Assembly: GCA_002269645.1 (NCBI GenBank)
Contig: NIVC01003469.1
Coordinates: 1 to 64,000, forward strand
DNA: 64,000 nucleotides
Source: Macrostomum lignano
Lineage: Eukaryota
Reading direction: 5' to 3'
This document shows positions 8,701-60,982 of this stretch, in pieces. The translations under genes were made by a program, and so were the position numbers. Position 1 is the first letter of the stretch, and each line of letters opens with the position of its first letter. The notes below the pieces were generated by a model. It was given only the letters and a program-made list of their open reading frames with translations. It did not search any database and had not been told where the DNA came from.

Positions 8701-11700
8701 AGTCATCCAGACGCTGGTCTCAGTTGTGCACAGGATGCTTCTTTTATAGCGACACTTCTCGGGCTATGTGTGAAATTTTACGATTAAAATCTCTATTACT
8801 CTACTTCTCTGAGTAGCCTAAATTAAATCTGTCACAAATGGATTTTAAAAAAACTAAATAGGCACCTTAGCGTTCTAATTCTAAGCTAAGTGCGTCTTCC
8901 TGAATGAACGGATACTAATTAATGTCTTTAACTAACCCCAAGTCCTCTCCTTTACCAATTCAACAGCGTCTACGTCGACGGTCAGTGGCACGGCGATTTG
9001 AAGGCGTCGCCAAGTCGTGGAAACTATTTTTATTACCTATCGGATCTGCAGCCAGGTCTGGCTTGCGAAGTTCAGGTCAAGGCTATCGCTGGTAGCGACG
9101 AGGTAAGAGAGATTTAACTGTCGAATTCCATATATTGGAAACGATCAATAAATCAACGATTTTGCACAGGTGGATCCGCAATCTGACACGGTGACTTGCC
9201 TCTGCGAGAGCGAGCTCAGTCAGCCGCCTCTGCGCGTCACGGGCGCTTCAGTCACGCAGAGTCCCGAGCTCAAACTGGAGGCCCTGGACTCTGACGGTCT
9301 GACCGTGGCCTGGGATCCGCTGACACCGGAGTCCGGCATCTCCGTGAGTCTTGCGTTGCATTTTTAGCTTAACACCCCTCCTGAATTATGATTGGCTGAG
9401 GGATATGACGTCATCCTCTCTATCCCCATATGAACATCCCACCCCACGCCTGTCTTGATCATTCCTGAAATCTGATTGGCTGACGTACACGACGTCACGT
9501 CTGATCCCAGCTCTACTTCTCATTGGCTCTGGATGCTCATCTAAATTTAATTTAAATTCGACTTGAATATTCACAGTTTCATAAATATGAAATTTTCACA
9601 GTTACAAATAAAGCTTTCATTGAGGAACTAGAAAAACTTTCAAAGGCTTTGATTGCCATAGACTCGAAAATTGATGTTAAAACGATGTGTCGTGCATTTC
9701 TGCAGTTCCTCTGGTTAATCCAAGCAAAAGCATGTTGTTAAATTGCTCAGCTTTTGGCCAGCTCAAACAAAGCTCCATTCTCAACTGTGTCCGCAAATGA
9801 GAAGTCTTAGTTCGTACGCGTGAGTCACGCGGACACAGGAAACATGCCACTCGGTACTGCTCAGCTCTCCGACCGAACCAATGACGACGCGAAACTGGAC
9901 GAGTTTTTAAACCAATCAGCCGCTCCAAATGCAACAACTCGATTCCTTGACGAGGAGGAAGAGGAGGAAGACGTCTATGACGAGGATGACACCTGCAGCG
10001 AGGTGGCGGGTCAGTGCGGCAGCAAGCCTTACCTGGACAGGTTCGCCTTTGTTACCCACGCGGAGGTGCACCCGGTAGCTTACTGCGAGTACGAGGTGAC
10101 GGGTGACGCCGGGCTGCCATTCTTGCGAGCCATGGTTCAACGACGATCCACCGGGTGCTGCGGCGGCTCCACCAACCAGGGCTTCAATCTGTTCATCTCG
10201 GACATCAGCAGCAAGCAGACTGTTGTGAAGCTGACCTGCGACCAGCACTGGGCTGTAACGGTCGAGTCGCCACCAACAGAGGTCATTGGCTACGTGAGCG
10301 TTGAACGAGTTCTATGCAGCCTGCGGTTCACCATCAAAGACATTCACGGCACCGCCCGTATCCTCGTACGCATGCCGAAGTACTGCCAGGCCAGCTGCAA
10401 ACGGCACCGCTTCCGGGTGCTGCTACCCGACGAGTCCGAGGAGGTCGCCAGCATCACGCGCCGCCTCATCACAGCGGTCGAAATCGATGAAAAAGGCCCA
10501 GTGTACACCCTGCAAGTGGGGGAGATGATGAGCACAGATATGAAAGCGATGCTGATTGGCGTTATGCTCATGTTTGACCGGAAGCTGTTCGATAGTCACT
10601 AGTGGATTAGCAGCGCAAACTTTTCCTGGCAAACTTTTGGTTTCTTTTGTTTTGTTTTGATTGATTTCTTTCAACTATACAAGCTTGAACGTAAATGATA
10701 TTTTATTGATTTTGAATCTTTGCAATTCTGTTGCTTTTAGAAACCAACAATTTGATCGGGGTACCTCTTCCGGGATACCTCTTCCGGTAATTCATCCTCG
10801 AGTATCGTTCACTCGATACCGCATTCAAATTAAATTCATTTTTAGGCTCGTACGTGCACCAAGAGCGCGTGGCCTGAACTTTTCATTGGGAGGGGATCGA
10901 ACGTCTGAACGTCAGTTTCAGAGGCGCCACCTCAATTAGGAGTTTTCGAAGAGAATATCATGAGCTCGCTAGTACCAAGGGGTGCTAACACTTGGAGCTT
11001 GTGACATCAAAAATACCCCCCTCAAACTGCAGAATTCACACAGCGCTTTAGGTACTAGTCTCTTAGAAAATATTTACGAATTAAACCGATTTAAACATTA
11101 AATCACGCCTGCAGGGGTTCTAGCCTAGTGGTTATGAGCGTAGGTAATTGAGGGTGTGTGTATGGCAACCCCCCCCCCCCCCCCCCTAGTGCTTGTACGG
11201 AGCAGCCGTACGCAGCCTTCAGATGCGCATAGCTGCGGCTAAGCTGTCGGTTGCACATCTGGCCAATAAAGCAGTAATCATTTATTATTATTATTATTAT
11301 GCCCGCAAAGTCTACTATAAGTAGCACAAAAAACCACCAACCGACAGGGCTATCAAATATTGCGCGACGGTCGGCCCTACGGCCAGCCAATTCCGGCCAA
11401 TCAGCTTCGATTTCGCGTCGACGATTTGCCGGCTGGTGGTCGAGTATCGTTGCAGCTGGTTGCCATGACAACCGGAGCAGAACGCTGCGCCCCCGGACCC
11501 GTGCTGTTGGTGAACTGCGCCGCTGCTGGGAGCGGCGCCAACGGCGGCAGTAATGCAGGCCGTCGAAGTAGCAGCGCGTCCAGTCGACCGCCAAGCGAAG
11601 CCCAGCCAGCTGGAGTGACGTTCCGGCCAACCACTGCAGCAAGTGAGTAGTGGCCTTGTAGATAATTTGTTGATCGTGTCATTTGTCTTTGTATGAATAA

Positions 11701-17670: not shown

Positions 17671-19290
17671 TCAGTGCCTGCCTCGTCCAGTCTTGTGCGT
17701 GTAGAACTTGTTGAAGTTCTCCGTGATGATCGGCACGGGAATGGCCAGAGTCAACACCCCGGCCACTGCGCACACGGAGCCCACCAGTTTGCCCAGCGGG
17801 CCCTTCGGCACCTTGTCGCCGTAGCCCACAGTGCACATGGTGATCACCGCCCACCAGAACGCGTCCGGGATGCTCTCGATCTGCGAGCCCTTTACCTCGC
17901 TCTCCACATAATAGATGGTGGATGAGAACAGCAAGATGCAGACAACCAGAGCCACTAGGAATAACCCCAGGCCTTCAATGCTGGCCCGGAAGGTGAGCAC
18001 GAGAACCTGCAGGCCGTCGAAGTGCTTGGTGAGCTTGAACACCCGGATGAGGCGGACAACTCGCAGGAAGGCGAGCGAAGCACTGGACTTAGCGCCTTCG
18101 CAGCTCATGGTGATGAGCACGTTTGTCAGGGTAACGTAATAGGGAACTATGGCCGAGAAGTCCACGGCGTTCTTCATGTCCTTGATGAAGGCCTGCTTGG
18201 ACGGGCAGACGCTGAACCTGACCAGCAGCTCCAGGGTGAACCATGCGGTGCACGCAGTTTCAATGATGAAGAACGGATCCAGGAAGTTCGGCATCTCGTC
18301 GCCGACACAGTGCGAATCTTTGAACTCTTTGAGCGTCTCAACGCAGAATAGGATGATGGACACCACGGTGAAGAGCACCGACACGATGGCGACAAAGAAC
18401 GCCGGGGTGCTGGTCTCCGGGTACTCGAACAGCATCCAGATGCGCCTCTTCACCGGGTGATCCGGGAGGACGACAGTCTCCGAGATGTAGCCCTCGTCCT
18501 TCTTGTAGGCGTCCACCACCTCGCGCTCGATCTCGTAGAACTCCAACTCGGACAGGAAGATGTCGTCCGTGACAGTCGGTGGTCGCTTCAGCTTGCCGCC
18601 GTAGAGATAATAATTAAATATGGCTTCGAAGGTGGGCCGGTGCCTGTCCAAGAAGTACTCCCGGTGTTTGGCATCGTAGTACGGGGCCCGCTTTTGCGGA
18701 TTGCCCAGCAGGGTCCTGGGGTGCTGGTTGAGCACGCCCAGGCGGGTCTCGAAGTGCATGCCGGACACATTGAGCCGGACTCGCTCGCAGCCTAGCAGGT
18801 GGCAGTCGTGGAAGCTCCTGACGGGAGGCGCGACGCATTTGGCCGCTGATGAAGCTCGAACGGACGCTACTGGCTCAACGTCCTCGTCCGACTGTTCTGC
18901 CTCTTCGCCTCCCTGCAAGTCTTTGTTATCATCAACGGAGTCTTTGTTGCTGCCGGACCTGCAAAGCCGCGGCCTCCGCTGCGGCAGGTGCGACAGCGTC
19001 GGCTCGAATCGCACCTGATGACCTCCGCCGCCTCCAGCGACCGAGGCCCAGCTGTTCTTCCCGCGCCTCCTGACGCCGCCGCCGCCGCTGCGAAAGCTCG
19101 ACCGGCTGAGCAGCCCCGCCGACTGCTGCGCGCTCTGCTGCCAGCCGATCATGCCGCCTCCGCCGCCTCCGCCGCCACCGCCGCCGCCGCCGCCGTAGCC
19201 GCTGTTTCTCCTGTCATCGTCCAGATGATGATGGTGACCGCCGCCGCCCCCGCCGAAGCTCGGGCTCATGTAGGACGGCACGTACAGCAT
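17671..19290 (-). CDS. Shaker: Shaker/Kv1-family voltage-gated potassium channel, single coding exon, 539 aa
   Basis: T1 domain (CERVRLNVSGMHFET..EYFLDRHRPTFEAI), S1-S6, pore WWAVITMCTVGYGD, S6 PVP motif; Gly/His-rich N-terminus; acceptor TTTCCAG near 19447 suggests upstream non-coding exons. Confidence 0.95.
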   Translation of the reverse strand: MLYVPSYMSPSFGGGGGGHHHHLDDDRRNSGYGGGGGGGGGGGGGGMIGWQQSAQQSAGLLSRSSFRSGGGGVRRRGKNSWASVAGGGGGHQVRFEPTLSHLPQRRPRLCRSGSNKDSVDDNKDLQGGEEAEQSDEDVEPVASVRASSAAKCVAPPVRSFHDCHLLGCERVRLNVSGMHFETRLGVLNQHPRTLLGNPQKRAPYYDAKHREYFLDRHRPTFEAIFNYYLYGGKLKRPPTVTDDIFLSELEFYEIEREVVDAYKKDEGYISETVVLPDHPVKRRIWMLFEYPETSTPAFFVAIVSVLFTVVSIILFCVETLKEFKDSHCVGDEMPNFLDPFFIIETACTAWFTLELLVRFSVCPSKQAFIKDMKNAVDFSAIVPYYVTLTNVLITMSCEGAKSSASLAFLRVVRLIRVFKLTKHFDGLQVLVLTFRASIEGLGLFLVALVVCILLFSSTIYYVESEVKGSQIESIPDAFWWAVITMCTVGYGDKVPKGPLGKLVGSVCAVAGVLTLAIPVPIITENFNKFYTHKTGRGRH

Positions 19291-28405: not shown

Positions 28406-31156
28406 TCACCTACCAGAGCCTTTCTCAGCTCGGTGCTTTGCACCCACAGCATCCGCAACACTGCGATAGCCTTTAGCCTTCAGCAGTGCCTCCAGCTCCC
28501 GGTTGATCCTGTTCACCACGGGTGGGCCTTCATAGACCAGTGCGGTGTACAGCTGCAGCAGGCAGGCTCCGGACTCCAGCTTCTCCAGTGCGTCGGCTCC
28601 GCTGCACAAGCCGCCAACTCCAATGATTGGCATTCGGCCTCCAGTGAGCCGGTAAGCTGAGCTGATGGCTCGATTAGCCAGGGCAGCCAATGGCTGACCG
28701 CTCAGGCCGCCAGCTTGACCTGTCAGATCTGATGAAGCCGAGAGGCTGGATGGTCGAGTAACCGTAGTATTGGAGATGATCAGACCGTCCGCTCCAACTG
28801 ATTCGGCCACGGCGCAAATGTCTGCCAACTCTTGATCTGAGCAGTCTGGCGAGATCTGCGGAGACAGCGGAGGCGGGGTTGCCATGGTAACTAGGAATGC
28901 ATGTAGCATTATGCTATATGCATGCTAGGAGAGGAGAAAGGAGAGAAGAGGAGAGAGGAGAGGAAAGAAAGGAGAGGAGAGAGGAGAGAGGAGAGGGGAG
29001 GGGAGAGAGGAGAGGGGAGGGGAGAGAGGAGAGGAGAGGGGAGAGAGGAGAGGGGATGGGAGAGAGGAGAGGAGAGGGGAGAGAGGAGAGGAGAGGGGAG
29101 AGAGGAGAGGAGAGAGAGGGGAGAGAAGAGAGGGGAGAGAGGAGAGGGTGGAGAGGGAGAGGAGAGGATAGAGGAGATGAGCGGGGAGAAAGGAGAGAGG
29201 CGGCGAGAGATGGGAGAGTGGAGAGAATAGAGAGGAGAGAGGGGAGAGGGAAGAGAGGGGAGAGGGGAGAGGGAGAGAGGGGAGAGGGGAGAGAGGGGAG
29301 AGGGGAGAGAGGAGAGAGGGGAGAGGGGAGAGAGGGGAGAGAGGAGAGAGGGGAGAGGGGAGAGAGGGGAGAGGGGAGAGAGAAGAAAGAGAGGGACAAA
29401 GGAGAGAAAGCAGTAAGCAGTCAAGAAGGCGGGATCAAATAGATGGGCACTGAGCGCCACAGATGCATTCAGCACCATCTGCAGAACACTATTCATAGAG
29501 TCTGCATTTTTGCAACTGTAACAGCCAGCAGAAAACTCCTAATGCCCCCCATCTGTGACATGCAGTCTTTAGACTACATTGATAGATTGAATTGATAGCT
29601 ACGCATGGAGTCAATGCTAAATACTGTTTATAGAATTAACTTCAAAACTGACCTTCAATAGTACGGGCGGCCTACCGACTCCCCGCTTGCCTTTCCAGCC
29701 ATCCAGCTTCACAGCCTCATCTGCGGCAGCCAGCACACCGGCCAGAAGGTTTTGCAATTTCTGACGTCGCTGAAGATCACGCAGGCCGGGAGTGTTGGGA
29801 CTGCTCACGTTTATGACCAGATAGTCTGCTGTGGAAGCAAACTTGCGGGCTCCCAACGCGTAGTCACCAGCCGGGTCTGAGCTGCTTTTATTGGCGCCAA
29901 GATTCACTCCAACCCAACCGCTAGCTGACGCTGAGCGCAGGTTAACCAGAGCCTGTTCGTGGCCGCAGCTGTTGAATCCGTAGCGATTGATGATGGCGGA
30001 GTCTGCCGACAGCCGGAACACCCTCGGCTTGGGGTTGCCAGGCTGCGGCAGAGGCGTCACGCTGCCAACTTCAACGAAACTGAAGCCGAGCCGAAACAGG
30101 CTGTCCACGGCCTGGGCGTCCTTGTCGAATCCGGCTGCCAGGCCCACGGGGTGCGGGAAGTCGCGGTTGAAGGCTTTGATTGACAGCTGGGGAGCCGCTT
30201 GGGTTGCTGTGCTGTAGAGTGAGGAGGTTTTGGGAATAAGTTCCTGTTGGTTGAATGAGAATCTTCCAAGACTCAACACAGTACCTGAGGATTTGGGAGG
30301 CTGGCCCAGCAACTCATGATCTGGGAGGCTGGCCCAGCAACTGAGGATCTGGGAGGCTGGCCCAGCAACTGAGGATCTGGGAGGCTGGCCCAGCAACTGG
30401 GGATCTGGGAGGCTGGCCCAGCAACTGAAAATCTGGGAGGCTGGCCCAGCAACTGGGGATCTGGGAGGCTGGCCCAGCAACTGAAAATCTGGGAGGCTGG
30501 CCCAGCAACTGGGGATCTGGGAGGCTGGCCCAGCAACTGAGGATTTGGGAGGCTGGCCCAGCAAATGGGAGTCTGGGAGGCTGGCCCAGCAACTGAGAAT
30601 CTGGGAGGCTGGCCCAGCAACTGGGGATCTGGGAGGCTGGCCCAGCAACTGGGGATCTGGGAGGCTGGCCCAGCAACTGAAAATCTGGGAGGCTGGCTCA
30701 GCAACTGGGAGTCTGGGAGGCTGGCCCAGCAACTGAGAATCTGGGAGGCTGGCCCAGCAACTGGGGATCTGGGAGGCTGGCCCAGCAACTGAGAATCTGG
30801 GAGGCTGGCTCAGCAACTGGGGATCTGGGAGGCTGGCCCAGCAACTGGGGATCTGGGAGGCTGGCCCAGCAACTGAGGATCTGGGAGGCTGGCCCAGCAA
30901 CTGAGGATCGGGCAGGGAGGCTCTGGCAATCAGTCAGTCACCCAGAATAATGCTACCTGGTCAGAAGCCAGGATGGAGCCCGGGCCAGACCCCAGATAGC
31001 CAAGCGGTGAGCAGTCTCCGGGTCCAGCAAGCGGTGAACAGTTGGCATGGCAACATCCCGATAAAATTTCTCGCTGCCACTGAAAGCAGCAGCGGCTGTG
31101 CCGATGGCCAGGCCGCCTGACCAAACCAGCAGCAGGTTGCCAAGGCGACGAGTTGA
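28406..31156 (-). CDS. DHODH: Dihydroorotate dehydrogenase (quinone), class 2. Exons 31156-30957, 30211-29653, 28855-28406; start-codon exon lies further upstream and was not identified.
   Basis: LLDPETAHRLAI, PVGLAAGFDK, GFSFVEVGSVTPLPQPGNPKPRVFRL, INRYGFNS, INVSSPNTPGLR, LLK|ISPD, SNTT, GGLSG, IIGVGG, QLYTALVYEGP; phase-compatible GT-AG junctions. Confidence 0.95.
28925..29405. repeat. Polypurine GA-rich tract in a DHODH intron
   Basis: Almost pure A/G on the + strand. Confidence 0.9.
30290..30905. repeat. 28-bp minisatellite (CTGGCCCAGCAACTGGGGATCTGGGAGG)n in a DHODH intron
   Basis: About 22 tandem units. Confidence 0.95.
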
Positions 31157-44809: not shown

Positions 44810-46513
44810 TCAGCTCCTAAGTTCGATTTCCTCAGCATTTTCTCCACCCAGCGCTTGTTTCTCTCCGACATCGCATTCTGCAGTCTCTTGATCGCCGGTC
44901 CTTGAGCTGCTTCTCTTGGCCGACCTACGCTTGAGCAGCAGGGACACGCAGATGTAGACGAGTTCGAACATTTCGCAAACGGTGAGCACGCTGCAGCCGA
45001 TGTACAGACCCAGCAAACCTCCGGTGTCAGCCAGAAGGTCAGCGAATGTGTAAGACCAGGCTAGCATGACTTGTGGCGAGAGAAGCGAGTCGATAGTAAT
45101 TTGGACACTGAGCATCGACTCGGACACGTAGGAGTGGAAGATACCCTCCAGGTGGGCTGAGTGGTCACCCATTTGAAGCTGCTTTGCAATATCGGACACC
45201 CTAGCCAAAGCTGGCGCCTCAGCCTTGCTTACAGAGGTGCGGTTGAAGTATTCGGCGAAGTACCTTAAAATCGAACTGCCGGCGCTTGGCCACTTGCCAA
45301 ACGAGTAACTGGTGGAATAAATCGGATACGAGCAGGGGATTCTAGTTTTGCAGTACTTTTGGGCAAGAGTCTCAAGCTCGATTCGTCGTCCAGAGCCAGC
45401 TTTTCTCATTCTTTTGACAGTAGCTGCTGTCATCTCAGACATGTTGTTGCAGTGCGGATAGTCGCGAAATTCCCAAAACGACGGCCGCTGACTCAGCTGA
45501 CATCCAATCTCGTCAACTACCTGTACGTTAACATTTCTATAGTAGCAGGCAGCATTGCTGTAGTTGAATCGTTCCCGCTTGCCTGATAGCGAGTTCATGA
45601 ACTCGACTGGCGGAGTTTCCAACAGGCAGAACTTATCGTGCAGCTCCTCACTGCAGGTGCTTTCTGTCATCTTGAGCTGAACCGAGTACTCAAAGCCTGG
45701 AGACATGTGGAAGCTCTCCTCGAACCTTAGCGACGGATAAGCTCCTGGTGGCACAATCAGCATAGTAAAGCCGGATGTTCTCAACTGTTCATGATAGCGG
45801 TATGGGTGCCACTCAAGAAACGGAACCGAATTTCCATTGCTGTCAGCAATGGGCTGAATCGGATGCCCAGTGAAGTTGAGCTCAGCCAAGTAAGGGTCAG
45901 TTGACAGTCGCAACTTCAGCGTGCTACCTGGATTCATGATCATCTTTTTTAGTTTGTCACTGAGAATCAGCCGAAAGCAAACTAGATTCTCGTAGTTGTA
46001 AAACGCTTCCACATCAACATTATGCGCTACAAAATCATCGGTGATGGCCGCGAATTGAACTGATTCCTCCTTTCGAACCAGCAAATACTTTGCCAGCAGA
46101 TCAAATGGAAGCGACAACTGCACTAGAGGCGTCCACAAGAAGGCATGAAATAAAATGCTTTTCGGAACATCATACAGTTCTCCGAAGCGGTCAATCAGCT
46201 GTTTGATGCGGCTGTTTACCAAATCAGCCTCTTCCTTTGTCAGTGTGAAGGGATAGCTGCCCGAGTACGGGTTGATGGGACAAAAGTACAGATCTGGGAG
46301 CACGAAAGTTGCCTGATCCAATTGGTATTTCTTTGTCATCTCGCTCTTTTGCAGTTTGAGCACAAGGTTGATGCCGCTTTTCAGAAAAACGGCCAGGCAA
46401 ATGAGGAATAGCAGAATCCACATCACTCGAAGCAGTTTGTTCTCCGAGGCAGCTGCTCGACTGATGCCGTGAGCCGAGCTGGAGGCGATTGTCTCCGCTA
46501 ACTTTTTCGCCAT
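44810..46513 (-). CDS. DEG/ENaC (amiloride-sensitive channel family) subunit, intronless, about 567 aa from ATG 46513
   Basis: Pre-TM1 SSAHGISR motif, TM1 RVMWILLF, post-TM1 LPDLYFCPINPY, Cys-rich ectodomain, TM2 LLADTGGLLGLYIGCSVLTVCE with GxS filter. Confidence 0.92.
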   Translation of the reverse strand: MAKKLAETIASSSAHGISRAAASENKLLRVMWILLFLICLAVFLKSGINLVLKLQKSEMTKKYQLDQATFVLPDLYFCPINPYSGSYPFTLTKEEADLVNSRIKQLIDRFGELYDVPKSILFHAFLWTPLVQLSLPFDLLAKYLLVRKEESVQFAAITDDFVAHNVDVEAFYNYENLVCFRLILSDKLKKMIMNPGSTLKLRLSTDPYLAELNFTGHPIQPIADSNGNSVPFLEWHPYRYHEQLRTSGFTMLIVPPGAYPSLRFEESFHMSPGFEYSVQLKMTESTCSEELHDKFCLLETPPVEFMNSLSGKRERFNYSNAACYYRNVNVQVVDEIGCQLSQRPSFWEFRDYPHCNNMSEMTAATVKRMRKAGSGRRIELETLAQKYCKTRIPCSYPIYSTSYSFGKWPSAGSSILRYFAEYFNRTSVSKAEAPALARVSDIAKQLQMGDHSAHLEGIFHSYVSESMLSVQITIDSLLSPQVMLAWSYTFADLLADTGGLLGLYIGCSVLTVCEMFELVYICVSLLLKRRSAKRSSSRTGDQETAECDVGEKQALGGENAEEIELRS

Positions 46514-47664
46514 GAGCAGGTATTCAATCTGAAAAAGTGCCACAGGTTTGCTTGCTGTAGGCAATTTCAAACAAATAAAGGCGTTACGTTTGTGGCTTGT
46601 TTGTTGTATTATTAGGCAGTGTATATACATATGATACGATTCGCTCGTGTGCGCCTTGGGACTGACTCTCATGAGTCTAAATCGCCAGAGAGAAAGTCTA
46701 ATATTACCTGATGTGCACACAGACGCCAGATTTAAATTTGAGTTCAGCTAAACCTGAATTCGGATTTGCTTTAAAGGAGCTTAAAAAGTTCAGAAATAGC
46801 CTAAAAAGCTACCAACTAAAAACTTGCAACTGGTGGGGGCAGGGACTATGTGCATAAAGCAGACGCATGGTCAATTATATAGCTGTTTTCCGGTATGCCG
46901 TCTAGTGCAGCATCCATCAGATCATCTGATTCCCTATCCCAGTTGTCGGCTGTTGCTGCCTTGCTAAAATGCTAAAGCTCCCATTGACTGCCCGCTGCGC
47001 CTGTGTGGAGCGACGAGAGAGGAGGTACAGAAAAATTCGGTGGCCGTCTGGCCCACTGGCATGCACTGTGAGTGCAGCAATGTTCAGCAGAATACTATGT
47101 GGGTTCCTGTATTGATTTTTTACTGCACAACACGCGGCGCGCTTCTTCCTGCTGGATGCCGGAACTTACTGAAGCAAGCAGTTTGCGACAATATTTTGTG
47201 ACGAATATTGTGGTGGCCTCGAAAATAATCGACAAGACAAATACGGCAGAGCCAAATTTGTAGGCGGTAGCACTTGGCAATAATGGCGACTGATGCGGGC
47301 AATGGCCGCAGATTTTGTTTATTGTAACGGAGACAGACCAAAGTACTACTGAATTCGCAAACGATGCACTGGCGGCTACACAACAATAAGTTAGATGGTA
47401 GGAGGCAGAGGGGGTCGATGAGTGTGAGGCAACGGTGACGAAGTGATGGCGGTGAACGTACGGTGGCGGTGCTCGTAGTAAGAGCTCGAACTGACAGTAG
47501 AAGTGGCGTGACTGAGGCTGGCGAAGGCGTAGCTAGAACCGTGGCGGAGAGAGAAGGCAAGTAAAGAAGGAGTGAGAGCCCAAGGGCGGGCAGAGCAGCG
47601 CGGGGCAGGGTAGGGCTTGACGCGGGAGAACGGGTCTAACCCCGAGCGCTCAGCCAGACAGGAC

Positions 47665-52777: not shown

Positions 52778-54982
52778 TCACTGCCTGACAGATGGTTTTC
52801 TTTCACGCCTCTGCTGCTTGCCCGGCTTCTCGTCCAAAGTTTTGCTGCCGCTGCCCAGTTCGTCAGCCGTGGGCTCTTTGGTCTCCAACAGTCGAGGCGG
52901 TCGCGGACCCGTCCGACGGATGAGCACGGGGATTTGGCTGCCACCCGCTGGGTTGCTGCCCGCATTGGCGATTCGAACTCTGGCACTGCGGGTGCTCCTC
53001 TTCACTGACCGCTGGCCCGCCAGTGCCGGCTGCGGCAGCGGCGGCAGAAGCCGAGGCAGCTGCTCCGGTGACGGAGTGGTCGAAACGGGCTGCTCAGGCA
53101 CCACCTCGGCGGTCAGGAGGTACTCGCTCAGGTTCTGCCTGTGCAAATCGTCACTGCTGCAGCTGCTGTTGCTGGCCGTGTCCGTGGCAGCACTGTGGTC
53201 GCCCTTGTTGCTGAGATTCTGAAAAGCTTCAGCTTCCTTAGCCATTTTGTGAACGAAAAAGTCAGAGTCAGAGTCGGAAGAGGAGCCGGCACCGGTGCCG
53301 CTGGACTCCTCAGTGTTGGCGGTGTTGGTCATGACGGTCTTGGTAGATTCTCTGGGGAACTCCAGCCGGTCCATGTAGTATTTGTTCTTGGGGTCGTCGC
53401 GTCCAACGCCGCGAGTTCGTTTGCCACCGATGATTGTCCCTGCGGCTTTGAGCTCCTCGCCCTTGTCCAAGATCACGTAGTTAGTAATGTTCTCGTCGTT
53501 GCACATCAGCATCCGGGTTAGCACGGCCGGGTCCTGCACATCGTTCAGGGCGTGCAGCTCGCGGTCCAGGCGCTCCTCGGTGAAGAAGCGAGCCAGCTCG
53601 TGCCGCTGGTCGATGACGGTGATCCGAGCGCATTCGCGGACGAACGAGAACACCTCAGGTTGGAAGCGAACCTTTTCGGCGTCATCCAGTCCCATGAAGT
53701 AGTCTTTGAACTCCAGATCGCTGATGATGTCGAAATAATTCAGCCAGCCGGCATCAGCCAGAGTTTTGACGATCGTCTTGATGATCACGGCGAAGGTTGG
53801 CATCTTGGCTAGACGGTAGCACTTCGCCAGGAGACCAACCATGAGAGCGATGCAGCAGTCTGCATCGAACTCAAAGAGAGCCTGCGGCCATTCAATGTTG
53901 ATTCCGCGGCTTCGTTCTCTGTAGACTGGGATGGTCTCGAGACGCTTGCGCCGGCCGGGGCGGGGTACGAATGGCATAGCGGGATCGCCCACGAGTTTAA
54001 AGATGCCCATGTTGATAAACTGACTGGCCGCTCGAACCAAATTAGCCGTCGATTTCAGCTTCTTGTCTGCGTAGAAGGCGCATCGTAGCAGCCGTCGCGG
54101 ATAGGTTTTGCAATTGTTGATGATGCGCTCAGCGTCCCGAAGCAAAGTCATGGGATTTGCTCGGCTCGGCTGGCTCATGTAGTTGAAGCGAAAATGCTCA
54201 GTCGGGCATTTGAGCACAGCGGAGCACAGGCTGGGAATGTCTATCGAGCTGCGCTTCGTGAACATCACGTAGAACGCGTAGTCAAGAAAGTCGTCAAAGT
54301 TCAGGTAGGTCTCAACGAAGCGCTTCCGGTAGACGAGGGCGTATGGCTCCATTGGGAACCAGTTTTCGTGCTGCAGCATGGCCTGAAGAATGTCGTAGGT
54401 CTCATTCAGCATTGCCAGATTGTGGTCGTACAGGCACATCAGGTCGCCGAATCGCTCGTTGATGAAGGTGATGAACTGCGGCTGTCGTGCCATAATGTGC
54501 TTCTTGTTGGTGTCGCGGTCGATGCATCGCACCAGCATGGTTGCCGCTTTGGGCTTTCGCAGGTAAATAGCCAGGCCTAGAGGCGTCAGGTACATCACAG
54601 CGTGCCGGTTAAACAGCGAAGATCGATCCAGAGAATAGAATTCCGGCCTGTCAATCACCTGGAAGTACTTCGCCTTGGTGATGATAAATTCTTTCTTGCC
54701 GCCAATTACAGTCTTCTTGGCCTGCAAAGCTCGCGGGTCCGGCTCGAACTTGAGCAGGCCTTTTGATTCTTTGTCCATGAGCACGCGGTTCAGCTCCTTC
54801 TCGTTCTCAGTCCTGATGGCGTTCACCAGCCACGATGTGGTCGGATGGTACAGATCGAAGAATCTCGGCACCATGTGGTAAAAGTTTTGCGACTTTTTCT
54901 CCGCTTTGCTGAACTTTCGGCCGCTGTGGGGCTTCTGCCGGAAGAACATGGGGTCCGGCAGGCGAATCGTGCCCTTAGTCAT
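52778..54982 (-). CDS. Hypothetical 734-aa intronless protein with a possible degenerate ankyrin-like repeat and a low-complexity Ser/Pro-rich tail
   Basis: 2.2-kb open frame in GC-rich, host-like sequence; YLTPLGLAIYLRKPKAATMLV resembles an ankyrin TPLxxA motif; no other family recognised. Confidence 0.75.
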   Translation of the reverse strand: MTKGTIRLPDPMFFRQKPHSGRKFSKAEKKSQNFYHMVPRFFDLYHPTTSWLVNAIRTENEKELNRVLMDKESKGLLKFEPDPRALQAKKTVIGGKKEFIITKAKYFQVIDRPEFYSLDRSSLFNRHAVMYLTPLGLAIYLRKPKAATMLVRCIDRDTNKKHIMARQPQFITFINERFGDLMCLYDHNLAMLNETYDILQAMLQHENWFPMEPYALVYRKRFVETYLNFDDFLDYAFYVMFTKRSSIDIPSLCSAVLKCPTEHFRFNYMSQPSRANPMTLLRDAERIINNCKTYPRRLLRCAFYADKKLKSTANLVRAASQFINMGIFKLVGDPAMPFVPRPGRRKRLETIPVYRERSRGINIEWPQALFEFDADCCIALMVGLLAKCYRLAKMPTFAVIIKTIVKTLADAGWLNYFDIISDLEFKDYFMGLDDAEKVRFQPEVFSFVRECARITVIDQRHELARFFTEERLDRELHALNDVQDPAVLTRMLMCNDENITNYVILDKGEELKAAGTIIGGKRTRGVGRDDPKNKYYMDRLEFPRESTKTVMTNTANTEESSGTGAGSSSDSDSDFFVHKMAKEAEAFQNLSNKGDHSAATDTASNSSCSSDDLHRQNLSEYLLTAEVVPEQPVSTTPSPEQLPRLLPPLPQPALAGQRSVKRSTRSARVRIANAGSNPAGGSQIPVLIRRTGPRPPRLLETKEPTADELGSGSKTLDEKPGKQQRRERKPSVRQ

Positions 54983-55708
54983 GGCTGCTGGTTGAAGGCT
55001 GGCGGTGTTGCAAGTTGAAATGCAGCAGTCGAAAAGACCGAACTAGTAACTTTTGTCTGGAATATGGAAGCTGCTGATACAAATCAAATTTATATGTTCA
55101 TTACAATATGGTTTCTAAGCCTTTTATTAGGCGAGCTAAAACCTTTCATAAAGAATGCTACAGTTCTTGAATTTGCCATAGACTAACGGGATGTTGACAG
55201 CGGAAATGTGAATGTTAACTTGGTAGGCTGGCAGGCTTTAACTCGAATTGAAAATCTATAATTTATTTTATTTTTTTATGAAACAATACTGAGCAAATGT
55301 GAAACGCAAAGCGAAATGGGCTGGTATCTGATGTAAACACGCTCTGGTCGCGGGATAGGGCAGGGAGAACTTTTTCGAGAAGTGCCGCCCATCACCGCGC
55401 ACCTCCTGCGCAGAGCCGTCGAGACTGGGCCAAGTCTTCGACCAGGCCTGCAGACTCTCGCTCTGCTGCACCCCCTGCTGCCTTGGCTTCGTCTCCCCTG
55501 CCGCCACACTTGCCTTTCCGGAGCTCCCTGTCCCTCTCTGTACCTCCCCCTCTACCCTATCTCCTCTGCGCTCCACCCTATTTTCTCTGTACCTCCCCTG
55601 TCTCCCCTCTTTTTGCCCCTTTTCACACTATTTTCCTGCGCTGTCCCCCCTTTTTCTGCGTCTACTTACAGTATTTTGCGCGCTCACCGTGCCATCATCA
55701 GTAGTATT

Positions 55709-55949
55709 TACGGTACAAAATTGCCAGCAAACCGCTCTCATAATTCAAAGAGAATTAACCCTTTATCAGTGTGAAATGGCTCGTTTTCCCTTCATTATCG
55801 CTCGTCTTCACTTCGCTTAACTCGCTTCTCTCATCCTCGCTTCATTTCGGTCAATCTCCTCATTTCACACTTACAACGATTAATTCTCTTTGAATTATGA
55901 GAATACGCCCTCGTCGTTCGCTTTGGTTTGCTGGCAATTTTGTACCGTA
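55709..55949. repeat. Subterminal inverted repeat (hairpin) of the Polinton
   Basis: 55709-55733 pairs perfectly with 55925-55949 (25 bp); 55736-55758 pairs perfectly with 55880-55902 (23 bp). Confidence 0.9.
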
Positions 55950-56043: not shown

Positions 56044-56442
56044 ATGACACACGTTACTTATATGCAAAATCTGAATGAATTGCAGGTAGGAGACCCAGTT
56101 GAATACCGAGGTGAGGGGCTTTTTGATGTGGTTGGAACAGCAGCGAATTTTGTTAAAGACAATATGGGTCTTATAGGGCAAGCAGGCTCCGCAGCAGGTT
56201 CTATAACAAATGCTGTAAAAGGAGGAATTGAAGCAGCTAGAGCGGCAGAAGAACTAAAGAAATTGAGAGATTTTAACGACACCCTCTCACAAATAAATGC
56301 AATAAAAGATTTAAAGCTGGCACAAGCCGCACAACCAACAGAAACCCCCACGAAAAGCGCGCCAATAAGTAATAAAGATATTCAGGATTTTAATAAAATG
56401 TTAACCACAATTAAAGGCGGAAAAGGATTAAAGAAATTTTAA
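56044..56442 (+). CDS. Polinton small Gly/Ala-rich protein, putative virion core or membrane-active protein, 132 aa
   Basis: Intact ORF; YRGEG|LFDVVG..amphipathic helix, VKGG, IKGGKG resemble adenain-type cleavage sites. Confidence 0.7.
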   Translation: MTHVTYMQNLNELQVGDPVEYRGEGLFDVVGTAANFVKDNMGLIGQAGSAAGSITNAVKGGIEAARAAEELKKLRDFNDTLSQINAIKDLKLAQAAQPTETPTKSAPISNKDIQDFNKMLTTIKGGKGLKKF

Positions 56443-56452
56443 CAATATAAAA

Positions 56453-57427
56453 ATGGACACAGATAATAACCGCTTATATTTTATAGGAGAAATTGTAGAT
56501 ACTTTAGATCTAGATGATAATAAACATAGCCACACAATGTTAAAAAGATTGGATCGTTTAGGTAAAAAACTTGACTACGATATCGATACATTTAAACTTG
56601 CTGCAAAATATGCACAAGAAGGAAGGCCAATATCCTTTAAGAATCATGGTAGAAATTATAGGTTGACAGACTCCGATGTAAAATTTTTATTGGAGACTCA
56701 CACTAAAAAAGACGGTGGGTTGTTACCTATTTTACCAATTCTTTTAGGCCTCGGAGCAGCCGGAGCAGCCGGTTTAGCAGGTAAAAGAATTCATGATAAC
56801 CGAAAACAGTTAGCAGAATTAAAAGCAAAACAAGGAGGAATATTGCCATTAGCAACTTTATTACCAATAATTTTTGCAGGAATAGGAGCAGCTGGTGGAA
56901 TAGCAGGGGGCGCAGCCGGAATCACAAAAGCAGTAAATGATAAAAAAGCTGCGGATGAAAAAGCTAAACGAGATGCAGAATTTCAAAGACAGCAAATAAC
57001 ACAGGACGCACAATTCAAACAGAAACTTATTGATACCATTAATAGTAGTTCAGCAACAGCAGAGCAAAAAAGAAATGCAGAAGCTAGGTTAGCAGCCGGA
57101 AAAGGTTTACTGTTAAATGGCAACGGTTTGGTACTAAAAGGAACGACCCAAGGAAGCGGAGTTGTCGCAGATAAACTACAGGAATTTGGTCAAACTTTAG
57201 AAAAAACGGGTGAGAAAGCTAAAGGATTTTTTGATAATATTGGAGCTAATTTTAGGCCAGCAGTTCAGAAGATTTTTAATAAGTTAGGAAAAGATTTTAA
57301 CATAATTGAAAAACACGATGGAAGCGGATTATATCTCGAAATGAGACCAAAAGCAGGTTCAGGAATTTTCTTAAATTCAAATGTTATGGGAAATGGATTG
57401 CTATTACCAAAAGCAGATCTCGAATAG
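56453..57427 (+). CDS. Polinton putative core protein with two adenovirus pX(mu)-like hydrophobic motifs, 324 aa
   Basis: KKDGG|LLPILPILLGLGAAG and AKQGG|ILPLATLLPIIFAGIGAAGGIA; repeated GxG-[LIV] motifs in the C-terminal half. Confidence 0.8.
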   Translation: MDTDNNRLYFIGEIVDTLDLDDNKHSHTMLKRLDRLGKKLDYDIDTFKLAAKYAQEGRPISFKNHGRNYRLTDSDVKFLLETHTKKDGGLLPILPILLGLGAAGAAGLAGKRIHDNRKQLAELKAKQGGILPLATLLPIIFAGIGAAGGIAGGAAGITKAVNDKKAADEKAKRDAEFQRQQITQDAQFKQKLIDTINSSSATAEQKRNAEARLAAGKGLLLNGNGLVLKGTTQGSGVVADKLQEFGQTLEKTGEKAKGFFDNIGANFRPAVQKIFNKLGKDFNIIEKHDGSGLYLEMRPKAGSGIFLNSNVMGNGLLLPKADLE

Positions 57428-57511: not shown

Positions 57512-60500
57512 ATGGAACAAAGAATGACCCCAGATCAGATTCGACAACTTCTTGCAAATGAGCGCCAACAGTTCAATCGATTACAAAGACAGATTGAACA
57601 AATTGAACAGCGCCAAAGACAACAACGCCGCCAAAGAGCAAGAGAAAGACAGAGAGAAAGGCAGAGAGAAAGAGAAATACAAGAACAGCAAATAAATGCA
57701 TTAGCAAATAATATAAGGGCAGAATATGAAATGAAGCGATTAATAGAAAAGGCTGAATATGAAAAAAGAATAGCAGAATTAGAAAAAAACCAAAAGAAAC
57801 CCACACGTCGGAAACCTCGGAATAAATCGGATGAAAAACCATTAGATGAGTTTATTAGGGTTTATCGATTTGAACCAATGCAGAATGTCCTAGATTTTAT
57901 TGAAACCCAGCTTTCAAACGGATATAGTGTTGAAATTACTAATGCGAGGGTACAATATTTTTATAATAAAACCGGAGATGATCGCGAAGAGATTAATCAA
58001 TACTTAGCAACATTTTATAATATAAGCCAATTTCAAGCTTGGTTTAAGCATTTGGTAGAAAACTACGACATGAATTTAAGTGTGTTTTCTGGAAGACTTA
58101 AAATGACACCAAACGAAATTACACTTAAACACGAAAGGTCAAAGCAGGGTATGGGAACAAATGTCATGTGTGAAATTGCAGAGTATAAAGATGAGTACTG
58201 TTACATACCTAGTGATGGAAATTGTTTCTACAAGTGTGTTCAGTTTATTTATGGTGATAAAGCCCCATCCAAAGACGAATATGGTGCTTGGTTGTACGAC
58301 TCAAGAACCCAAAGAGGATTAATGACAAATTCAAGAATTGGAAAATTCAATGAATATTTTAATCTTAATATAGGGCTGTATAACCCTAATAATCGTGGAA
58401 TTGAACCAAAGTCTCAAAGAGGGATTCACCACGACTGGTTATTAATAAATTACTATCACACAGCCGACTATCACATTGGTCATTATTGCCTTATATCCAA
58501 TAAACAACGAGGAATCGCCCTCGAACGGATAAAAGACAATTATAAAGTAGTATTTAAAAACCCAACGCCCGAAAATGTTAAAGAGCTAAAAATGTTCACC
58601 ACATCCACAAATCCCAAAAAATCAAATGTATACATATTTGATTTTGAAACATATTTAAATTATAATCAACAAGCATGTCCGTATGCAGTTGGTCTTTTAA
58701 ACTATAACGACTTTTCTAATAATTGTAACGAAACCCCAGAGACAATAAAGAAACTAACTAAGATCTTGATATCAGATCGCGGTTGTGATTTTCAAACTGG
58801 TGGAGATAAAATGGACTGTGTTAGAAAAATGTTTAAATACCTTGGTACAGTTAGGTCAAAAAAGATTGTTTTGATCGCACACAACTCATCCCGCTTCGAT
58901 TCATACATACCACTATTTTGTAATATAAAACCAATTAAAATTCTTAAAACCCCAAGAGGAATATTATCAATCACTTTTGTAAACGATTATATGTCAAAAG
59001 AGGTTAGAGCGTTTATAAACAAAGATAAGAAGAAGAATCATAAGGATTCGAAACAAACCATTACGATGCTTTGTTCATATCAACACGCATCAATGAGTTT
59101 AAAAAAGTTTTGCTCATCAATGACAATTAGAGAGGATTTGCGCAAGACCTCAATGGTTCACGACATTACTGAGGACGACTACCTAGAGCGCACGGATGAA
59201 TGGTATGAATATTTACAATTTGATCTTATTTCTTTATGTGCCTGTATTCATAAGTATAATGAAATAGCATATGAAATTGGAGGAATGACAATGTTCGATA
59301 CTCTTACCTGTTCAAGTTTAACATTAAAATGTTGGTTTAAAGATTTTGTTAGAGTTGAAGACAAAATGAAACAATACCTAAAGACAAAAGAAAAAAGTAA
59401 TTACATTAAAAAAGTTGAAGAAATAATATCTCCGTTAAAAATCGAAGATTATTTTGACTTGAGCAAACTTGATAAAGCGAAATATCAAACACTATTAAGA
59501 AAAGAATTTTCGGTTCACTCTCATACCAACCCTTATATAAGAAGGTTTATGAGGGACGCAGTCAAAGGAGGCAGAGTATTTGCACTAATAAATAAATACG
59601 AAAGTGACTGTTTTCAAACAATTGTAGACGTTGTAAAAGGCCATTTAAAAATACCAACAAGCGACCCATGCGAGGTTATATCAACTTATCTCAAAAGCGA
59701 TATGGAAGAAAAAAAGAAAATCGCAATTAAACTAAAAAACCAATTGGGTACCGTATCAGATTGTTTAATGAATTTTGATGGAGTCTCGTTGTACCCATCT
59801 GCTATGTCTGATAAGGATAGTGAATATCCAAGAGCAGAAACAGCCAGAGTTTTTGATATAAGCGAGGAAAAAGATTTTTTGACACAATTTAATTCACAAA
59901 CCTTTCGACCAAAAACAGCGGTTTTAAAGATTATGTATGAGAACCCTACCAGCGTTTTTCTTCAACATCTCCCATCGAAAGATAAAGAGAAATTTTATAA
60001 TCCGGAAACAAAAGCAAACGAAACAAAAACATTAAATAGGTTTAGAAATGGAAAGGTAATCGACACCTTAAGTTCCGTAGACATACAAGAAATTGTAAGA
60101 ATGGGTGGAAAAATATTTAAGATATATAGTGGAATTGTATATGAAAAAAATTACGATTTCTCTCCGTTTCAGAATTATATTACAAACCTTTTTGAAATGA
60201 GAAAAGTATTTAAAAAAGAAAATAACGAGGCGGGTTCTGAATTAGTAAAAACATTGTTAAATTCCTTATATGGTAAAACGGTTCAAAGAGACATTACTTT
60301 CACAACGCATCTCTGGAATTTGAATACATTAAAAACAGAATACGACGACACAATTAAGTCATATGAGAAAATATGTGACGATTTATTTTATGTTGAAAAA
60401 AAGAAAGACACACAAGAATATTTAGATGAGGATGATAATCCTACAACAGGTCTTTGTCCGGCACAATTAGGAATATTTATCTTAGCTCATTCAAGAAGGA

Positions 60501-60982
60501 TCATGAATAATTTTATCACCTCTATAGACGGTTCAAAGACTCCAGAAATTTATTACGGTGATACGGATTCGTTATATATACATAAAAAACATTGGGACAC
60601 ATTAAATAAAAACGGGCATGTTGGAAATAATTTAAGTCAAGGAAAAAACGATTATGGAGAGGGCGGAATTATATTCGGATATTTTATTGCTCCTGAAATT
60701 AAATATTGTCTGTTATTGAAAGACGATTTTATTATGGAAGAGAAAAAAACATTTAAAGGATGTGCAAACGATAAGATTAATTTTGCATCGTTTAAAACTT
60801 TATATGATGGACAGTCAATAAAAGTAAATAATAATGCTCCGTGGAAACGATCGTTTGAAGGCGGTATAAAAATTCCTCAAAGCGGATCGACCATATCAAA
60901 AACATATACTTCTACGATAAACACATTTAAAAGAGAAAAACCGGATAAAAACGGAGTTATGAAATCAATAGCCTTTTTGTAA
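57512..60982 (+). CDS. polB: Protein-primed family B DNA polymerase (pPolB), 1156 aa, with an N-terminal coiled coil and OTU-like segment
   Basis: Exo I FDFET, Exo II HNSSRFD, Exo III YLQFD, GGRV, DGVSLYPSAM, KTLLNSLYGK, YGDTDS. Confidence 0.97.
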   Translation: MEQRMTPDQIRQLLANERQQFNRLQRQIEQIEQRQRQQRRQRARERQRERQREREIQEQQINALANNIRAEYEMKRLIEKAEYEKRIAELEKNQKKPTRRKPRNKSDEKPLDEFIRVYRFEPMQNVLDFIETQLSNGYSVEITNARVQYFYNKTGDDREEINQYLATFYNISQFQAWFKHLVENYDMNLSVFSGRLKMTPNEITLKHERSKQGMGTNVMCEIAEYKDEYCYIPSDGNCFYKCVQFIYGDKAPSKDEYGAWLYDSRTQRGLMTNSRIGKFNEYFNLNIGLYNPNNRGIEPKSQRGIHHDWLLINYYHTADYHIGHYCLISNKQRGIALERIKDNYKVVFKNPTPENVKELKMFTTSTNPKKSNVYIFDFETYLNYNQQACPYAVGLLNYNDFSNNCNETPETIKKLTKILISDRGCDFQTGGDKMDCVRKMFKYLGTVRSKKIVLIAHNSSRFDSYIPLFCNIKPIKILKTPRGILSITFVNDYMSKEVRAFINKDKKKNHKDSKQTITMLCSYQHASMSLKKFCSSMTIREDLRKTSMVHDITEDDYLERTDEWYEYLQFDLISLCACIHKYNEIAYEIGGMTMFDTLTCSSLTLKCWFKDFVRVEDKMKQYLKTKEKSNYIKKVEEIISPLKIEDYFDLSKLDKAKYQTLLRKEFSVHSHTNPYIRRFMRDAVKGGRVFALINKYESDCFQTIVDVVKGHLKIPTSDPCEVISTYLKSDMEEKKKIAIKLKNQLGTVSDCLMNFDGVSLYPSAMSDKDSEYPRAETARVFDISEEKDFLTQFNSQTFRPKTAVLKIMYENPTSVFLQHLPSKDKEKFYNPETKANETKTLNRFRNGKVIDTLSSVDIQEIVRMGGKIFKIYSGIVYEKNYDFSPFQNYITNLFEMRKVFKKENNEAGSELVKTLLNSLYGKTVQRDITFTTHLWNLNTLKTEYDDTIKSYEKICDDLFYVEKKKDTQEYLDEDDNPTTGLCPAQLGIFILAHSRRIMNNFITSIDGSKTPEIYYGDTDSLYIHKKHWDTLNKNGHVGNNLSQGKNDYGEGGIIFGYFIAPEIKYCLLLKDDFIMEEKKTFKGCANDKINFASFKTLYDGQSIKVNNNAPWKRSFEGGIKIPQSGSTISKTYTSTINTFKREKPDKNGVMKSIAFL

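Follow-up and report, generated by a model that had tools for sequence, protein, structure and literature searches.

Genomic Setting of the Element

The window, i.e. the whole 64,000-nt stretch analysed here (positions 1 to 64,000 of contig NIVC01003469.1 from Macrostomum lignano, assembly GCA_002269645.1), includes the left end of a Polinton (adintovirus), of which ORF1 and ORF2 are the first genes (Table 1). The putative left terminus reads AGTAGT, which we take to be the usual Polinton end, and the G+C content falls at this point from 0.58 outside to 0.42 and then 0.33–0.37 inside. The hairpin just inside the terminus consists of nested inverted repeats extending over 240 nt. The window covers 8.3 kb of the element from its left end, the right end and the genes for protease, capsid, ATPase and integrase lie beyond it, and no protease motif of the element was found within these 8.3 kb.

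The gene located 3′ of ORF2 encodes a protein-primed DNA polymerase B (pPolB) with a Pfam match to PF03175, the PolB type that Starrett et al. (PMC8502044) assign to their Alpha class, and its closest relative is an M. lignano protein with 95% sequence identity. This bears out the Polinton context proposed in an earlier note on this DNA. The M. lignano relative sits in a cluster of 10 members spread over several contigs, and the family is thus multi-copy. Downstream of pPolB and on the opposite strand follow a SLATT-like gene with two transmembrane helices and then a fibre-like gene. A gene similar to the SLATT-like one was seen in a related locus (L158), with a SLATT_fungal match at E 0.007, and SLATT genes are described from such viruses (10.64898/2026.10.13.758929). 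Relatives with an ORF2-family gene (L053 and L158) possess integrase, ATPase, hexon, penton and protease.

Table 1. Features of the window, ordered by position. The arrow marks the bond at which a candidate site would be cut; Φ, hydrophobic residue.
Feature	Positions	Strand	Remarks
Host gene: scramblase	9844-10602	+	
Host gene: voltage-gated potassium channel	17671-19290	-	
Host gene: dihydroorotate dehydrogenase piece	28406-28909	-	
Gypsy-type gag-pol ORF, intact, 1277 aa	39888-43721	+	protease, RT, RNase H, integrase
Host gene: DEG/ENaC channel	44810-46672	-	
734-aa ORF just outside the element	52778-54982	-	no Pfam match
Putative left terminus of Polinton, AGTAGT	55700-55705	+	G+C drop at same point
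Long imperfect hairpin within the element, next to its end	55709-55949	.	25-nt arms 100%, 28-nt arms 93% complementary
ORF1, 132 aa, putatively PW/Cupiennin-like	56044-56442	+	pVI-like layout
ORF1 N-terminal candidate site YRGE↓GLF	56104-56124	+	helix after site, hydrophobic moment 0.34
ORF1 C-terminal candidate site KGGK↓GLKKF	56413-56439	+	overlaps canonical adenain IKGG↓K
ORF2, 324 aa, putative pX-like (Macc-class) core precursor	56453-57427	+	module duplicated
ORF2 N-terminal domain, residues 1-89	56453-56719	+	helices and β-hairpin-helix; no fold match
pX-like module 1, KDGG↓LLP and hydrophobic Gly/Ala helix	56708-56788	+	alone: no Pfam match
pX-like module 2, KQGG↓ILP	56828-56926	+	Adeno_PX 27.5 bits (cut-off 25)
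Gx↓G-Φ motifs 217 and 224, within an insertion seen only in this copy	57092-57133	+	gap in 6/6 other orthologues
Amphipathic helical segment, 56 aa (236-291)	57158-57325	+	between two conserved Gx↓G sites
C-terminal ladder, three Gx↓G-Φ-Φ-L units	57314-57424	+	predicted pieces of 12, 11, 10 aa
Protein-primed DNA polymerase B, PF03175 (Alpha class)	57512-60982	+	Pfam E 8e-20
Two-helix membrane protein, 138 aa	61359-61775	-	weak SLATT_1 match, E 0.17
Fibre-like gene, F5/8 type C domain	62107-63999	-	at least 8 repeats of 19 aa (57 nt); cut by window end

ORF2 Carries a Duplicated pX-like Module

Two kinds of glycine motif are found in the two ORFs. GG-ΦΦP occurs after residues 89 and 129 of ORF2, and GxG-Φ occurs eight times, at residues 24 and 127 of ORF1 and 217, 224, 235, 291, 303 and 314 of ORF2. 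The ORFs and all ten motifs are present where the earlier note had placed them. That note saw a likeness to adenovirus pX in both GG copies, of which only the second matches the Pfam profile. Module 2, when excised, matches Adeno_PX (PF05829) with 27.5 bits (E 2.8e-6), above the curated cut-off of 25, while excised module 1 has no match in Pfam, Adeno_PX included. The match spans the region of the known pX cut site. ORF2 as a whole scores 22.1 bits, which is under the cut-off. Among 26 relatives of ORF2 that were scanned, 16 match Adeno_PX at E values up to 0.1, two of them above the cut-off. A pVI profile had been proposed for the same check, and no Pfam match to pVI was obtained for ORF1.

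The part of pX that ORF2 matches is the hydrophobic C-terminal piece. In adenovirus pX, mu is described as the Arg-rich middle piece (residues 32–50), followed by a hydrophobic piece (51–79; PMC7998265). The Arg-rich peptide is absent from ORF2, where the pieces before and between the modules contain 5–7% Arg and no predicted fragment contains more than 8%. ORF2 thus has the hydrophobic pX piece without the Arg-rich one, and the term “mu-like” used earlier is a misnomer.

The predicted structure of ORF2 is largely disordered or helical (mean pLDDT 46.6), and only residues 1–89 were modelled with pLDDT above 70. Fold searches with this poor model returned generic helices only. A sequence search of the PDB gave adenovirus PX at no better than E 1.4–3.2, and the Atlas matches (0.90–0.91, one cluster with 20% Adeno_PX) can serve as leads only. 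No match to the PLA2 domain (PF08398) was found in ORF2 at E values up to 1; the family does match separate PLA2 genes in relatives. A gasdermin C-terminal-like domain was likewise not seen in ORF2, either in Pfam or as a clear fold match to the low-confidence model. The segment 236–291 has a hydrophobic moment of 0.43 at its start and 0.60 at best, and an amphipathic helix is predicted after the main Gx↓G site. In all three sets compared, the 18 residues past the first helix-type site have a hydrophobic moment of 0.30–0.35, vs 0.19–0.21 in shuffles.

ORF1 Has a pVI-like Layout

ORF1 consists of a 24-aa leader, a Gx↓G site, a predicted amphipathic helix and a C-terminal Gx↓G-L-K-K-F. No Pfam match, no homologue in word searches and no useful Atlas match were found for it. 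The same layout is seen in related elements in the gene that separates penton from hexon: a short leader is followed by Gx↓G and then by an amphipathic helix, and the C-terminus reads Gx↓G-(I/L)-K-(K/R)-F. Against a profile of this penton-hexon gene built from seven seeds, the extra ones of which were picked after they had been seen, ORF1 scores 18.6 bits, as high as none of 2000 shuffles. With five seeds the score is 7.5 bits (6 of 2000 shuffles as high), and with the four strict seeds it is 4.7 bits, inside the decoy range. The link between ORF1 and this gene is weak.

The gene between penton and hexon is equated by its position with PW or Cupiennin (PMC8097293, PMC8502044). ORF1 itself is not found between penton and hexon, but is the first gene after the terminus; one related locus (L091) likewise has an ORF1 homologue beside its pX-like gene. 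In two further loci (L059:51-962 and L080:1016-1927) a pX-like and an ORF1-like (PW/Cupiennin-like) module are fused into a 303-aa ORF with a Gx↓G junction.

The Glycine Motifs Are Enriched and Conserved

The motif counts in the window were tested against 20,000 shuffles. ORF2 has two GG-ΦΦP motifs vs 0.057 expected (p 0.0017) and six GxG-Φ motifs vs 1.11 expected (p 0.0006), and ORF1 has two GxG-Φ motifs vs 0.30 expected (p 0.034). As the pattern was set after the sequence had been seen, these p-values are post hoc and the weight falls on the relatives. A phmmer search with ORF2 gave 155 relatives, 150 of which were listed. With the pX module masked out, 328 GxG-Φ motifs were counted across 153 family proteins, vs 36 in shuffles (maximum 56). 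The variants GxxG-Φ, GxA-Φ, AxG-Φ and SxG-Φ are at or under chance in the same set, and the reverse order Φ-GxG shows a weaker enrichment (89 vs 35). A chance origin of the motifs is ruled out by these shuffle tests in the window and in the family. The gap between successive Gx↓G-Φ sites peaks at 9–12 residues in the family. By a strict pattern, a single pX-like module is present in 125 of the 153 proteins and two to four in 13, while 15 lack it; tandem copies hence recur but are a minority.

Seven full-length proteins, the window protein and six others, made up the orthologue set. Both pX-like modules are kept in all seven, 38–43 residues apart and always with Lys at P4. The conservation in relatives on which the earlier note had staked its reading is therefore seen for the GG sites, and also for the Gx↓G sites 235, 291 and 303 (7/7) and 314 (6/7), but not for 217 and 224, which are missing from all six other orthologues.

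Searches outside this set gave the following. A search with the ORF2 alignment confirmed nothing in viral or metagenome contigs, and a pPolB search of viral contigs also confirmed nothing. A first degenerate DNA pattern returned 11 viral loci, none of which encodes the ORF2 family on inspection of their ORFs. With a second DNA pattern 178 loci were fetched; 83 have a family match and the other 95 were dropped.

The Motif Is Confined to Core-type Genes

Four of the related loci (L053, L158, L185 and L049) span a large part of an element. In L053 and L158, Pfam named the ATPase, hexon, PLA2 gene and integrase; penton and the remaining classes were identified from their position, and proteins were assigned to classes by BLASTP to these two references. 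Three proteases in relatives have weak Peptidase_C5 matches. A protease gene with an N-x7-G-x-H-W motif is found in 22 of the fetched loci, mostly adjoining the pX-like gene.

The Gx↓G-Φ motif is confined to small core-type genes and nearly absent from hexon, ATPase, protease and integrase. Per 100 aa, the observed and shuffled densities are 1.70 and 0.41 for the pX-like gene, 1.16 and 0.39 for the penton-hexon gene, 0.68 and 0.15 for the PLA2 gene, 0.27 and 0.05 for the ATPase-adjacent gene and 0.21 and 0.06 for penton. They are 0.05 and 0.08 for hexon (two motifs in 4096 aa of hexons from related elements), 0.05 and 0.07 for pPolB, 0.04 and 0.08 for integrase, 0.04 and 0.09 for protease, 0.03 and 0.15 for the fibre-like gene and 0 and 0.08 for ATPase. 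The window pPolB, which serves as an internal negative control, has none in 1156 aa. In a larger set of 120 pPolB relatives there is a mild excess (0.19 vs 0.08 per 100 aa), and this, like the value for penton, argues that the division between core and non-core genes is not entirely clean. The distribution over genes resembles the substrate list of adenain, which comprises internal and minor proteins (PMC4246237).

Lys and Gln Replace the Adenain P4 Residue

Adenain is described as cutting (M/I/L)XGG↓X or (M/I/L)XGX↓G, with M, I or L needed at P4 and Gln or Asn tolerated (PMC4246237). The match to adenain patterns claimed earlier breaks down at this position. Only one of the ten window sites fits the consensus (LNGN↓G, in the private insertion), and across the family the consensus occurs 65 times, vs 49 in shuffles (maximum 64). 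P4 is instead Lys in 82% of the family GG sites and M, I or L in 0/155. Among 334 family Gx↓G sites, 36% have Lys and 8% M, I or L. The Lys background is 12%, with 6–16% at the positions flanking P4, and K.GxG-Φ is found 118 times vs 4.7 in shuffles. In the window, four of the ten sites have Lys at P4.

A second lineage is formed by short Arg-rich pX-like proteins, which have Gln at P4 in 14 of 15 cases and account for 15 of 83 ORFs. Such pX-like ORFs, seen at 62–115 aa in L024, L028, L055, L060, L079, L082, L163 and L180, have an Arg-rich N-terminus directly before QxGG↓ΦΦP and are far nearer to adenovirus pX/mu than ORF2 is. The P4 residue extends to other genes. In the other ORFs of Gln-type loci (n=19; the list includes shadow ORFs), 13 of 52 Gx↓G sites have Gln and none Lys, while in those of Lys-type loci (n=54) 8 of 32 have Lys and none Gln (Fisher p 0.001 and 0.0002 for the contrast, which comes from two lineages and amounts to one independent comparison). 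That one P4 residue is common to both registers and to unrelated genes points to one reader, as would be imposed by a single protease pocket.

The preference for Lys in this lineage is permissive and not strict. Even in Lys-type elements, P4 is Ile or Val at the N-terminal site of the penton-hexon gene. Pro, Thr or Ser is frequent at this position in the short C-terminal repeats. The Asp of the protease N-x-D motif was considered as the cause of the Lys preference and rejected: 18 of 19 Lys-type proteases have it, but so do the Gln-type protease and ASFV S273R. A single-sequence model of a relative’s protease was poor (51.1).

Comparison with Known Systems

ORF2 has the same order of elements as adenovirus pX (pre-mu, PF05829): GG, then ΦΦP, then a hydrophobic Gly/Ala helix. 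It differs from it in the lacking Arg-rich mu and in having a duplicated module embedded in a 324-aa protein. The window sites have the two registers of adenain (MEROPS C5, clan CE), XGG↓X and XGX↓G, but adenain substrates have M, I or L at P4 and Polinton sites have Lys or Gln. ORF1 resembles adenovirus pVI in having a leader, then an amphipathic helix, and at the C-terminus a short basic peptide with Phe as its last residue. The C-terminal Gly-Φ...Phe peptide of pVI is the adenain cofactor, pVIc (PMC4246237, PMC7998265). Unlike this 11-aa peptide, the ORF1 tail is 5 aa long and has no Cys, and ORF1 has no Pfam pVI match.

Genes with a pX-like domain are described from adintoviruses as PLA2X and GasderminX, along with Cupiennin (Starrett, 2021, PMC8502044), the Macc class has been named (Buck, 2024, PMC11071296), and PW, PM and PZ are known from vertebrate Mavericks (PMC8097293). 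ORF2 is like PLA2X, GasderminX and Macc in placing a pX-like domain in a gene of the Polinton virion module, the products of which are proposed to be membrane-active core proteins. It is unlike PLA2X and GasderminX in having no PLA2 or gasdermin match in Pfam, a pX module that is central and doubled, and a location with ORF1 at the left end. In adomaviruses, LO6/Macc is proposed to be a fused pVI and pX homologue, with low-mass bands in virions and adenain motifs (Welch, 2020, 10.1101/341131). This is another virus group, and its reported motifs obey the adenain rule, being (MIL)XGXG or L(LR)GG.

The closest demonstrated case to the ORF2 ladder is mavirus. Its protease MVP cuts the tail of the major capsid protein (MCP) at three GG↓X sites and one GY↓G site into pieces of 51, 13, 12 and 14 aa, the 51-aa piece containing a predicted amphipathic helix, and such cleavage motifs are reported for 10 of 12 virophage capsids (Born, 2018, PMC6048507). 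The predicted tail pieces of ORF2 are 56, 12, 11 and 10 aa. As for the mavirus MCP tail/MV13, a clan-CE protease would go together with a ladder of GG↓X and GX↓G, although the sites here are candidates only. The mavirus ladder is on the tail of the major capsid protein, whereas here it is on separate core genes and the hexons are without it.

Proposed Maturation and Alternative Explanations

We consider it probable that ORF1 and ORF2 are internal virion (core) precursors of the Polinton (adintovirus), which would be packaged and then cut by the element’s own clan-CE protease, freeing pX-like, amphipathic and 10–12-aa peptides. The adenain-like enzyme, presumably encoded by this copy, would act after assembly at xGG↓Φ and xGx↓G-Φ, i.e. 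in the registers used by adenain and the mavirus protease, with Lys instead of M, I or L at P4. ORF2 would thereby release its N-terminal domain and two hydrophobic peptides of the pX-C type (40 aa, and 88 aa or more), while its tail would yield the 56-aa amphipathic helix and three peptides of 12, 11 and 10 aa. ORF1 would lose its 24-aa leader, exposing the amphipathic helix, and its 5-aa basic tail. During entry the freed helices could target endosomal membranes, and cleavage could loosen the core.

Not all of these sites need be cut. If only KxGG and the helix-preceding Gx↓G sites were cleaved, the 9–12-aa Gx-G-Φ-[YF]-L repeats would be uncut binding units, e.g. short strands docking on the inner face of hexon or on the protease. 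Repeat-type sites do have a conserved Φ-[YF]-L-x-P tail and a copy number ranging from 0 to 6, and in the fetched loci 22% of 68 have Lys at P4 (19% Pro), vs 63% of 82 helix-type sites. In the phmmer family, however, P4 is Lys in 35% of both site types (158 and 172 sites), and the real cuts in mavirus are spaced by 12–14 aa (PMC6048507). Moreover, pVIc is itself an 11-aa Gly-Φ peptide freed by a Gx↓G cut (PMC4246237, PMC7998265), so binding and cutting are compatible, and we regard uncut repeats as unlikely. There is rather less to be said for purely structural glycines, which would serve as hinges or cap helices in membrane-active proteins rich in Gly, none of the motifs being a protease site. 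GxG is a common turn, the ORF2 model is largely disordered or helical (mean pLDDT 46.6) and the reverse order Φ-GxG is enriched too. Yet Gly is strictly needed at both positions with exact spacing, the P4 identity is lineage-wide across unrelated genes and both registers, and there is homology to a site cut by adenain, which together make this explanation quite improbable.

OTU and SUMO/ubiquitin proteases cut after GG. The vOTU domain of the element’s pPolB, or a host SUMO/ubiquitin protease, might accordingly be the enzyme in question; Polinton pPolBs are reported to carry an active-looking vOTU (PMC11161782), and one member of the window pPolB cluster is named an OTU-domain protein. We give this very little credence, since the majority of sites are in the Gx↓G register, which is typical of clan-CE viral maturation proteases (PMC4246237, PMC6048507), a clan-CE protease gene adjoins the pX-like gene in relatives, and the role proposed for the vOTU is release of the terminal protein (PMC11161782).

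Cleavage by the clan-CE protease could be taken one step further. Polintons might run a full adenovirus-style maturation, with a lineage-specific P4 code (Lys in one clade and Gln in another, as against M/I/L in adenoviruses) common to all core proteins of an element and with ORF1-type proteins as the pVI counterpart. Forerunners of pVIc might then be seen either in the Gly-Φ peptides of 9–12 aa from the ORF2 tail or in the ORF1 ending G-L-K-K-F. We put this forward tentatively, as a possibility that is open to considerable doubt.

Relation to Published Work

The pX-like domains of adintovirus genes, the Macc class and the adenain motifs of adomavirus LO6 are already in print. No cleavage-site map and no Lys/Gln P4 rule for Polinton core proteins were found in a literature search in which subscription papers are thinly covered. 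The string “cleav” is absent from the main text of PMC8502044, PMC8097293 and PMC4028283, and the search also took in 10.1101/2025.02.07.637071 and PMC13696692; the sequence files of PMC8502044 may name these genes. Relative to the literature found, the site ladder and the P4 code appear new, and pX-like Polinton genes are known.

Polinton virions are described as not observed (PMC8097293, 10.1101/2023.08.22.554363), and PW and PZ as uncharacterised (PMC8097293). For the Polinton protease the ladder suggests which proteins may be substrates, at exactly which bonds they may be cut and which residue is preferred at P4. It also connects adenovirus pX and pVI with the virophage capsid-tail ladder via the Polintons, the presumed ancestral group of adenoviruses (PMC11161782).

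Polinton Contigs in Bacterial Genome Bins

Several of the fetched loci come from Polinton contigs binned in GTDB bacterial genomes. Four (L163, L167, L179 and L180) belong to one Endozoicomonas MAG, and two (L158 and L185) to bacterial MAGs. These contigs are probably eukaryote-derived contamination.
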